Shown here: positions 43,940 through 45,633 of the stretch, in pieces | Layout of the letters: every line of letters begins with the position of its first letter | Numbering within the stretch: position 1 is the stretch's first letter | IMG/VR virus record: IMGVR_UViG_3300018495_000103 | Reading direction: 5' to 3' (one strand) | From: a virus | Length of the DNA stretch: 64,000 bases | Position numbers and translations under genes: made by a program | Notes under the pieces: model-generated | The model's input: only the letters and a program-made list of their open reading frames with translations | What the model was told of the DNA's origin: nothing | Database searches by the model: none

Positions 43940-44341
43940 TTATTCCACTCTATCTTCATATAAGGTGAGGCCGCATTCTCCAGATTCGGGGAACCACTCG
44001 CAAATAGAAGTGATTTTACCATCATAATCAGTGAAAATAACATATTCCATTCCGTCACTCATTACGAGGAAATATGTCCAACAAGCGCACCTATACTCTT
44101 GGAGCATAAACACATCGGGAACGTGTGCAAGAACTGTGCCAATAAAATCTTCATTCCCAATTCTCGGACCAATCATATCCTCTAAAATGAGAATAGCGTT
44201 TTCGTTAAGGTCGGGAATGGATTCAACAATTGTTTCCGTAGACGATGGGGTTTCTTCATAAGGGGTGTCGCAAGCAATAAGTGATACACAAAGGCAAATT
44301 GCCAAAACAAAGCAAATAAAAAGTTTAATCGCTTTCTTCAT
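43940..44341 (-). CDS. lipoprotein (133 aa)
   Basis: Signal peptide with lipobox LIAC (MKKAIKLFICFVLAICLCVSLIAC|DTPYEE). TAA stop, then a hairpin. Confidence 0.6.
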   Translation of the reverse strand: MKKAIKLFICFVLAICLCVSLIACDTPYEETPSSTETIVESIPDLNENAILILEDMIGPRIGNEDFIGTVLAHVPDVFMLQEYRCACWTYFLVMSDGMEYVIFTDYDGKITSICEWFPESGECGLTLYEDRVE

Positions 44342-45111
44342 TTCACTTCTCCTTCGGGAATTTCAATTAAATTGAAGACATCTTGAATATCTTCATGGAA
44401 GACCAGCTCAGCTCTGAAATCTGCTACTGTAGGGTCTCTGTTAATGACAACCAGATGACTATCATCGCAGTAGAATGGCAGGCTTGCGGCAGGTTGAACT
44501 ACCAGGGAGCTACCAACCACAATCATCAGGTCGGCTTGAGCAGCTGCCACCTGGGCATTGCTCCAAGCAGGAAATGCCAGCCCTTCACCATACAGGACAA
44601 TATCGGGTCGGATAGTGCCTTCGCCGCACAGAGGGCATTTAGGAATATCATTTAGATTATTGTAGTTTCCATCCAATACATCTTCTGGAATAAACAAGTC
44701 GTGACCACAATCCTGGCAATACCAACGACTCATAGTACCGTGGACAGCATATATCCTATCCATGCCAGTGTCTTCGTGTAAACCATCAATATTTTGTGTA
44801 ATCACAGACACTTTTCTTGCTTCCTGCAGCTCAGAAATTCTTTGATGGGCGATGGTTGGCTTAGCTCCACGAAAATCCATTTTTTCACGCAGATACTCGA
44901 AAAAAGCCTGTTCGTGCTTCTGAAGGCAGGTGCTGCTCAGCATATATTCCGGACTCTTGCCTCCAATATACGGACTTGCGTACAGACCATCCGCACTGCG
45001 GAAATCCGGAATACCGGAGCCAGTTGAGATACCGGCTCCGGTAAAAAACACGATATGCCGAGCGTCCGCAATTATCTTATTTAGTTTCGCAATACGCTCA
45101 TTAAAATCCAT
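44338..45111 (-). CDS. Sir2-family NAD-dependent protein deacylase/ADP-ribosyltransferase
   Basis: GAGISTGSGIPDFRS, catalytic VHG, Zn ribbon CQDC...CPLCG, GSSLVVQP motifs. Confidence 0.85.
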   Translation of the reverse strand: MDFNERIAKLNKIIADARHIVFFTGAGISTGSGIPDFRSADGLYASPYIGGKSPEYMLSSTCLQKHEQAFFEYLREKMDFRGAKPTIAHQRISELQEARKVSVITQNIDGLHEDTGMDRIYAVHGTMSRWYCQDCGHDLFIPEDVLDGNYNNLNDIPKCPLCGEGTIRPDIVLYGEGLAFPAWSNAQVAAAQADLMIVVGSSLVVQPAASLPFYCDDSHLVVINRDPTVADFRAELVFHEDIQDVFNLIEIPEGEVK

Positions 45112-45114
45112 ATC

Positions 45115-45633
45115 TTACTCTCCCATTTGTGCCTTGACGCAAGCATCGCCTGCAGCCATAGCTTCTTTCAGTGCCTCTTGGGCAACCTTCATATCGCAGC
45201 CCTCTTTCTTCAAGAAAGGCATCACATTCTTCATAATGACACCCTTATTACCAGAGCAGATAGAAACTGCGTTACAAACTCCCCAGTAGTTAATCATCTT
45301 GACAATTTCATCCTTGTCGTCGATAACCTTAGGAGCATACTCCAAAGCGATAGAGAGCTTCATCAGATATTCAGCCTTACGAGCCTTCAATTCTGCATCT
45401 CTCTTGGGGTCTGTTGCCCCATCGGGACAGGTATCGACCATCTCTTGGACAGTCTTCTTATACTTCAACATCACTTCATCGACAAAAGCATCTGTGATTT
45501 CTACTCTCTTTTTACCAGAGGTAGCAGCTTTGTCGATTGTGGCGACCATATCAGCCAGAGTCAAACGTCTCAGCTTATCGCCGTTTTTCAAGGCAGTTGT
45601 CATATCTGCCTTAATAGACTCATACTTATTCAT
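45115..45633 (-). CDS. GatB/YqeY-domain protein
   Basis: MNKYESIKADMTTALKNGDKLRRLTL... and C-terminal ...EIVKMINYW...MKNVMPFLKKEG..D.K.A.E.LK parallel YqeY. Confidence 0.55.
   Translation of the reverse strand: MNKYESIKADMTTALKNGDKLRRLTLADMVATIDKAATSGKKRVEITDAFVDEVMLKYKKTVQEMVDTCPDGATDPKRDAELKARKAEYLMKLSIALEYAPKVIDDKDEIVKMINYWGVCNAVSICSGNKGVIMKNVMPFLKKEGCDMKVAQEALKEAMAAGDACVKAQMGE

Follow-up and report, generated by a model that had tools for sequence, protein, structure and literature searches.

The gene analyzed here encodes a sirtuin (Sir2 family), predicted to be an NAD+-dependent deacylase, and lies in a 64,000-nt stretch of viral DNA (IMG/VR record IMGVR_UViG_3300018495_000103; "the window" below means this whole stretch) within an island of NAD+ biosynthesis genes (Table 1). 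All long open reading frames (ORFs) of the window are on the minus strand, and the window translates cleanly in genetic code 11. The sirtuin belongs to a five-gene unit, comprising PncA, Adps-like, YqeY, Sir2 and lipoprotein genes, that would be transcribed from a strong sigma-A-like phage promoter. Only 3 nt separate the YqeY stop codon from the Sir2 ATG, and the Sir2 stop codon shares nucleotides with the start codon of the lipoprotein gene (ATGA). An earlier note, made from the DNA letters alone, had described an intact sirtuin, with catalytic VHG and zinc ribbon, inside an NAD island; this is borne out by the sequence motifs, by 118 homologues and by the profile matches of the island genes. 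Also confirmed are the YqeY and lipoprotein neighbours, the latter lying just outside the note's own interval of 44338-45633.

The Sir2 protein covered the full Pfam SIR2 profile (PF02146; E 9e-45, 153.2 bits against a cut-off of 24) and scored 253.7 bits against the NCBIfam model NF001752, "NAD-dependent protein deacylase", for which the curated cut-off is 221. Among proteins of solved structure it is closest to the deacetylases Sir2-Af2 and Sir2Tm (38-40% identity), which were likewise the top Foldseek matches (template-modelling scores 0.79-0.88) of an AlphaFold2 (AF2) model with a predicted local distance difference test (pLDDT) score of 92.1. The fold is that of a single-domain sirtuin, consisting of a Rossmann fold and a small zinc-ribbon domain. 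Aligned to the same two references, the protein retains the motifs G25-A-G-I-S29, F37-R38, Q106-N107-I-D109 and V-H124-G, in which H124 is the catalytic residue, together with all four zinc cysteines (C132xxC135 and C159xxC162). Residues for NAD binding, catalysis and zinc binding are 99-100% conserved across the 118 homologues (55-98% identity), the clade also conserves two motifs of the substrate channel, YGE and VxPA, and the gene is intact in more than 100 Sir2 clusters over the same range of identity. Furthermore, pairwise ratios of nonsynonymous to synonymous substitution rates (dN/dS) fall between 0.09 and 0.19, indicating purifying selection. Given the invariant active site, this selection and the intact fold model, the gene is not a remnant, nor is it a decoy under relaxed selection; loss of NAD-binding residues, named in the earlier note as the mark of a degraded remnant, was not seen, all of them being retained on alignment. 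A scan of genome contigs with the single Sir2 protein returned just five weak archaeal or bacterial fragments.

To place the enzyme among sirtuin classes, SIRT5 and CobB reference sequences were checked against the PDB before alignment. The columns of SIRT5 Y102 and R105 hold F71 and L74 in the phage protein; CobB has the Y/R pair, and Sir2-Af2 and Sir2Tm are without it. Class III (CobB/SIRT5, acidic-acyl) was rejected on the missing YxxR pair, and because this pair is replaced, a preference for acetyl or hydrophobic acyl groups is predicted to be more likely than one for succinyl or malonyl groups. A rough neighbour-joining tree, which included no proteobacterial-phage sirtuins, placed all gut-phage versions beside Sir2Tm and Sir2-Af2 and apart from CobB and SIRT5. 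Of the classes that the earlier note proposed to tell apart (class U/SirTM versus CobB), SirTM and CobB both fail to fit the motifs. Identity to proteobacterial phage sirtuins (KVP40-like, T5-like) is 24-29%.

Table 1. Features of the NAD island, given in the direction of transcription with their positions in the window.
Feature	Position	Strand	Remarks
Terminator	47337-47360		just upstream of the PncA-unit promoter
Conserved phage promoter, TTGATTTTTAT-N-TATGnTATAAT, extended -10	47306..47334	-	starts the PncA-Adps-YqeY-Sir2-lipoprotein unit
Nicotinamidase-like PncA, isochorismatase family	46690..47280	-	first gene of the unit; Pfam Isochorismatase 3.6e-24
Prs-like protein, probably Adps (ADP-ribose pyrophosphokinase of NARP1)	45652..46479	-	similarity to SPbetaL1 gene
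YqeY-domain protein (GatB C-terminal-like)	45115..45633	-	172 aa; Pfam PF09424, PHROG 1460
Sir2-family NAD+-dependent deacylase (predicted)	44338..45111	-	257 aa; Pfam, NCBIfam, alignments, AF2 model, dN/dS
Clade-specific lipoprotein (predicted)	43940..44341	-	133 aa; lipobox
Intrinsic terminator	43909..43937	-	13-bp stem, then T-run; ends the Sir2 unit
Second copy of the conserved promoter	43880..43908	-	starts the orf82-Namat-macro-NadE-NADAR-AAA_28 unit
Conserved 82-aa ORF (orf82)	43603..43851	-	upstream of Namat
NAMPT-family protein, probably Namat (nicotinamide ADP-ribose-transferase of NARP1)	42123..43598	-	PDB matches
Macro domain, Poa1p/DarG/TARG1-like	41617..42123	-	candidate Adpp of NARP1-AP
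NAD synthetase NadE	40808..41614	-	Pfam, NCBIfam
NADAR-domain protein	40280..40795	-	
AAA_28 P-loop kinase (NadR kinase-domain family)	39752..40279	-	
Terminator of second unit	39742-39764	-	overlaps 3' end of the AAA_28 gene
Cytidylyltransferase-fold, NMNAT-like protein	38787..39365	-	

Transcription units and gene content of the NAD island

The promoter-like element ahead of PncA is 29 nt long and recurs in 10 copies on the minus strand (window 37824-62318), where 0 would be expected by chance. Five of the sites were aligned, and in three of them the promoter comes immediately after a strong hairpin terminator; such terminator-promoter cassettes divide the region into a series of short units. 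The element is probably an early promoter class for the host sigma-A polymerase.

The YqeY protein of the window scores 27.0 bits in Pfam, exactly at the cut-off of 27, and 2.4e-9 against PHROG 1460; all 10 relatives aligned match Pfam YqeY (best E 1.2e-26), and a sequence search of the PDB with the YqeY protein gave no meaningful match. The lipoprotein begins MKK...VSLIAC-D, combining a signal peptide with a lipobox of the form L-x-[AG]-C (MKKAIKLFICFVLAICLCVSLIAC), of which L21, A23 and C24 do not vary among 15 relatives; a fold search with it gave no match.

Matches of the surrounding genes point to NARP1, the NAD+ reconstitution pathway. The Prs-like protein falls below the PRPS family cut-off (83.6 bits against 113) and is 37% identical (E 3e-45) to Adps of SPbetaL1, the gene directly upstream of Namat in that phage. 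For the NAMPT-like protein the best PDB matches are 9W5X and 9W5W (E 7e-100; human NAMPT 5e-49), which are structures of SPbetaL1 Namat (NAR 2026 paper), with an identity of 39% to that protein. In the selectivity clamp of Namat (SPbetaL1 R40, F392, Y396), F392 is conserved, M is aligned with R40, and Y396 coincides with an insertion of 10 residues. The macro domain is of the Poa1p-like type, which in NARP1 operons is an ADP-ribose (ADPR)-1''-phosphate phosphatase (NARP1-AP pathway preprint). Based on these Namat-like, Adps-like and Poa1p-like matches, we assign the island to an extended NARP1-AP set for NAD+ reconstitution, with PncA, NadE, the NADAR protein, the AAA_28 kinase and the NMNAT-like protein as predicted additions. 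PncA matched the NCBIfam nicotinamidase model at 1.9e-10, under its cut-off. Neither a phage-encoded sirtuin nor YqeY turned up within NARP1 operons when the text and supplements of the NARP papers were searched; in the supplements of the NARP1-AP preprint, a search for Sir2 and YqeY found Nezha (SIR2-HerA) primer and plasmid entries only, and no YqeY.

Several further observations concern NAD+ genes. In close relatives, one of two alleles, of ~490 or ~586 aa, occupies the Namat/NAMPT position (window 42123-43598; L001 9453-11285, L011 7858-9618, L014 7834-9594), and their identity of just ~42% points to allele replacement by recombination. The AAA_28 kinase and the NMNAT-like gene, with a 105-aa ORF between them, resemble a split NadR-like enzyme of NARP3 type, and no PnuC transporter was seen near them. 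An NAD-dependent DNA ligase (window 20347-22338, minus strand; PHROG 3869, 1.5e-163) is a second NAD+ consumer encoded by the phage, and the nicotinamide mononucleotide (NMN) that it releases would also feed the NMNAT-like enzyme of the island.

Just upstream of the island (window 50632-56153, minus strand) are genes for an RNA ligase (50632-52050), an RNase T-like exonuclease (52659-53567), a factor of the sigma-70 family (53880-54800) and a Thg1-like tRNA-His guanylyltransferase (55263-56153). Metallophosphoesterases are found at 56300-57040 and 57919-58809, and together with the RNA ligase, RNase T and Thg1 genes they resemble an RNA-repair gene set.

The phage and the history of its locus

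Besides the NAD-dependent and RNA ligases, products of the window include a PolC/DnaE-type DNA polymerase, Dda and DnaB helicases, RecJ, topoisomerase II subunits and an endolysin. The closest matches of the polymerase (38%) are its counterparts in SPbeta-like Bacillus and Enterococcus phages and in the gut phage Phass-1, and an identical Sir2 protein occurs on at least 22 metagenomic contigs, the largest of 406 kb, with two others of 158 kb and 187 kb. From these contig sizes and the polymerase similarity, we conclude that the window comes from a large gut phage, probably one that infects a Firmicute, in agreement with the lipobox lipoproteins and with a DUF5067 lipoprotein in one relative. 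A search of GenBank phages for DNA near-identical to the island gave no match, and a tRNA scan of the window found zero tRNA genes. Phass-1 (L056, OQ749652), a distant relative, is assigned to the "code 15" clade and has a suppressor tRNA; its contiguous PncA-Prs-NAMPT genes adjoin a large tRNA array.

Other genes of this phage include one for an 838-aa protein (window 47373-49889, minus strand) with a major-vault-protein shoulder and repeat domains (MVP_shoulder 2e-23, Vault_3 1.4e-8), which is unusual for a phage, has no PHROG match and is kept in related phages (L032 and L069 among them). A 502-aa SPFH/Band_7 flotillin-like protein (34118-35626, minus strand) is encoded in a GC-rich segment (GC 0.49 against ~0.36-0.40 in the flanks), and a 564-aa plus-strand ORF overlapping its gene is probably spurious. 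A PIN-PhoH fusion protein is encoded at 32117-33226 on the minus strand (PhoH 1.5e-23, PIN_4 9.7e-15).

Across the Sir2 clade, down to 56% identity, the genes follow the order PncA-Adps-YqeY-Sir2-(small gene)-Namat, with the lipoprotein in some cases missing or swapped for a DUF5067 protein. Relatives without Sir2 (YqeY at 52% identity or less) show PncA-Adps-YqeY-(slot)-Namat-macro. Among 32 IMG/VR loci recovered with the YqeY profile, Sir2 was present in the three closest only, the remaining 29 having none within 4 kb. Ten further loci of this set show Adps-YqeY followed by a variable slot, with Namat downstream in eight and, in seven of these, PncA also upstream; what fills the slot varies between phages, and may be a small lipoprotein, a Thg1-like gene, a membrane protein or small zinc-ribbon ORFs. 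L028, which is of the RNA-ligase type and has no NARP1, carries a nucleotidyltransferase-like ORF after YqeY. Neither Sir2 nor YqeY is present in Phass-1, where PncA, Prs and NAMPT are directly adjacent and NadE is present, or in MT835544, which has Adps, Namat, macro, NadE and PncA genes. Given that Sir2-less relatives keep the rest of the locus, Sir2 is a late, lineage-specific insertion into a variable slot of an older NAD+ island; the macro, PncA and NARP1 genes, being retained in these relatives, are independent of it.

YqeY, by comparison, is a frequent NARP1 companion in gut phages, often wedged between Adps and Namat, an association not mentioned in the NARP papers searched. It stands immediately 3' of Adps in Sir2-less loci (L027, L029, L032, L033, L039-L046), often with overlapping stop and start codons, and Namat follows Adps-YqeY in such loci wherever downstream sequence is available.

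Function of the sirtuin

The reading that we favour, at a probability of about 0.6, is that the phage encodes a competent, canonical deacylase of the Sir2Tm/Sir2-Af2 type as an add-on to an NAD+ island able to cover its NAD+ use. Of the activities raised in the earlier note, deacylation is the one that fits best. The enzyme would most likely strip acetyl or other non-acidic acyl groups from lysines of host (or phage) proteins, using NAD+ and releasing nicotinamide and 2'-O-acyl-ADP-ribose. In a possible recycling loop, the macro domain could convert O-acyl-ADPR to ADPR, Adps and Namat would rebuild NAD+ out of ADPR and nicotinamide, and PncA would remove nicotinamide, a sirtuin inhibitor. NAD+ consumption by a sirtuin in an NAD operon, which the earlier note had called counter-intuitive, need not be a paradox, because the products, nicotinamide and deacylated ADPR, are substrates of the adjacent NARP1 pathway; a phage that rebuilds NAD+ can afford an NAD-consuming enzyme. 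Nicotinamide recycling around phage sirtuins that lie beside NAMPT/NMNAT has already been proposed by Skliros et al. for vibriophage Sir2 (PMC5107563). If the enzyme does deacylate host proteins, these phages may be rewriting the host acylome while covering the NAD+ cost.

Several points weigh against this account. A scan of ~40 window genes, a set that covered small ORFs only in part, brought up no acyltransferase partner, of GNAT type or any other. The closest characterized phage relatives of the macro domain are ADPR-1''-phosphate phosphatases, leaving its O-acyl-ADPR step putative, and PncA would draw nicotinamide away from Namat. Furthermore, L013 and L069 keep Sir2 next to YqeY with zero NARP1 genes within 5-7 kb (in L013, zero NAD-synthesis genes within 7 kb), and the sirtuin is thus independent of adjacent NARP1 genes. 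RNA-repair genes also recur as its neighbours.

This last point leads to the idea that Sir2 acts with YqeY, a GatB-tail domain of tRNA-binding type, on RNA or tRNA, for example in KptA/Tpt1-like NAD+-dependent removal of a 2'-phosphate during tRNA repair, with the macro domain and phosphoesterases processing ADPR-phosphate by-products. We consider it an unlikely but live alternative. A scan of IMG/VR with the Sir2 profile gave 80 loci, in 33 groups at 85% identity, and YqeY was the commonest neighbour (9 of the 33 groups), with a tight Sir2-YqeY gap of 1-15 nt in seven arrangements. Both gene orders occur, in separate Sir2 subclades and with or without NARP1 nearby: L069-71 have the order NADAR-TM-Sir2-YqeY-Thg1, reversed relative to the window clade, with a gap of ~4 nt (start codon as read) and zero NARP1 genes within 5 kb. 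Other neighbours of Sir2 are a CCA-adding-like nucleotidyltransferase upstream (L103, L113, L121) and a metallophosphoesterase downstream (L013, L075), and the window region itself holds RNA ligase, Thg1, RNase T and AAA_33 kinase genes along with several phosphoesterases. A role in RNA repair has also been proposed in print for other viral sirtuins (Iyer et al., PMC9503650). However, the scores of the protein are those of a cellular protein deacylase, and in sequence it is far from the proteobacterial phage sirtuins (24-29% identity); 24 of the 33 Sir2 groups have no YqeY nearby, as 29 of the 32 YqeY loci have no Sir2; and RNA-repair and NAD genes are mixed in one shuffled accessory region, so that chance adjacency is not negligible. 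The Sir2-YqeY synteny that the earlier note had proposed looking for is kept in the window clade and in one other subclade only; most phage YqeY genes have no Sir2 close by. We know of no sirtuin demonstrated to act on RNA. A more specific form of the idea, which we regard as improbable, has YqeY bringing the tRNA, Sir2 removing a 2'-phosphate (anticodon nucleases) or an N-acetyl group on aminoacyl-tRNA (GNAT toxins), and NARP1-AP recycling ADPR-type by-products. Joint action on tRNA would provide a function for both the YqeY domain and viral sirtuins and, if true, would be the first case of a sirtuin shown to act on RNA as well as a new phage counter-defence.

Also improbable is that Sir2 is a recently captured host gene, a near-neutral passenger without a role in infection. 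Most related phages do not have it and its slot is a variable one, as might be the case for a passenger, but it is intact in those >100 clusters with dN/dS below 0.2, all of its homologue contexts examined (56-100% identity) are on phage-like contigs, and its gene junctions within the operon are tight and coupled.

A more doubtful proposal still is that of an NAD+-degrading effector, such as a SIR2 NADase for superinfection exclusion or abortive infection, or of an inactive mimic titrating host defence. SIR2 domains are common in defence systems (introduction of the NARP1-AP preprint), and the co-translated lipoprotein could hint at an exclusion module. Yet the protein has zero matches to PADLOC defence models at E <=0.01, and its match is to canonical PF02146 with a zinc ribbon rather than to defence-type SIR2 (ThsA, DSR, SIR2-HerA). 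An NADase would, moreover, oppose the co-transcribed genes that rebuild NAD+, and the decoy suggested in the earlier note is contradicted by the invariant catalytic residues and strong purifying selection (dN/dS 0.09-0.19).

The pairing with the macro domain in the manner of SirTM, also put forward in that note, has hardly any probability left: a macro domain does lie ~2.2 kb downstream and some actinophages have sirtuin-macro pairs (PMC9503650), but the phage enzyme retains HG and has GSS (VVGSSL) in place of the class M motif GVGx[NT]TP, whereas SirTMs are defined by QG, in which a Q-to-H change abolishes their activity, and by sharing an operon with a macro domain, GcvH-L and LplA2 (PMC4518038), the last two being families with zero matches among the neighbouring genes scanned; and the macro gene here, of the NARP1-associated phosphatase type, is four genes downstream in the next transcription unit, past a terminator and promoter, and is kept where Sir2 is absent.

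Comparison with known systems

The closest counterparts of the sirtuin are Sir2Tm of Thermotoga maritima and Sir2-Af2 of Archaeoglobus fulgidus, which share with the phage enzyme the fold and the GAGIS, FR, QNID, HG, (F/Y)GE and VxPA motifs and likewise have no YxxR. What sets the phage protein apart from them is an insertion of 5 residues that follows the PDFRS loop, together with a Y-to-Q change in the VYP motif. Human SIRT2 has the same Y-to-Q change.

Although the earlier note had thought the YqeY and lipoprotein neighbours unusual for phages, Sir2 and YqeY each have a PHROG family, and Sir2 homologues occur in 130 GenBank phage records. Phage Sir2/CobB proteins accompanied by NAD salvage have been annotated since KVP40 (PMC5107563, PMC9503650). 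The Sir2/CobB proteins of KVP40-like vibriophages and T5-like phages (PHROG 2162) resemble the present case in combining a sirtuin with NAD salvage enzymes in a large lytic phage. They differ in sequence (24-29% identity), and the window gene is placed inside the NARP1 operon itself; Vibrio phage Sir2 proteins are also without the zinc cysteines (PMC5107563), all four of which the window protein keeps. Full-text literature searches turned up no biochemical characterization of any phage sirtuin.

With NARP1 and NARP1-AP the island shares Adps-like and Namat-like genes and a Poa1p-like macro domain next to Namat. Unlike in SPbetaL1, the core genes of the window are split by YqeY, Sir2, the lipoprotein and the 82-aa ORF, and are divided between two transcription units. 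SirTM-macro systems have in common with the island a sirtuin and a macro domain in one region, but the catalytic residue, class motifs and operon partners differ, and the window sirtuin is not a member.

KptA-like viral sirtuins were predicted from RNA-repair neighbourhoods by Iyer et al. (2022; PMC9503650), and their loci resemble the window in placing a sirtuin among RNA ligase, P-loop kinases and calcineurin-like phosphoesterases. The window Sir2 nevertheless appears to be of a different clade, closer to cellular deacetylases and with Firmicutes-type hosts, and is accompanied by YqeY, Thg1 and NARP1 genes instead of cREC, MazG and 2H. Set against these systems, what is new is that gut phages have a clade of cellular-type, zinc-containing Sir2 proteins, that its genes are placed between Adps and Namat, and that YqeY recurs next to them. 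The clade provides a well-behaved cellular-type enzyme, abundant in human-gut phages and apparently co-transcribed with a known counter-defence pathway.

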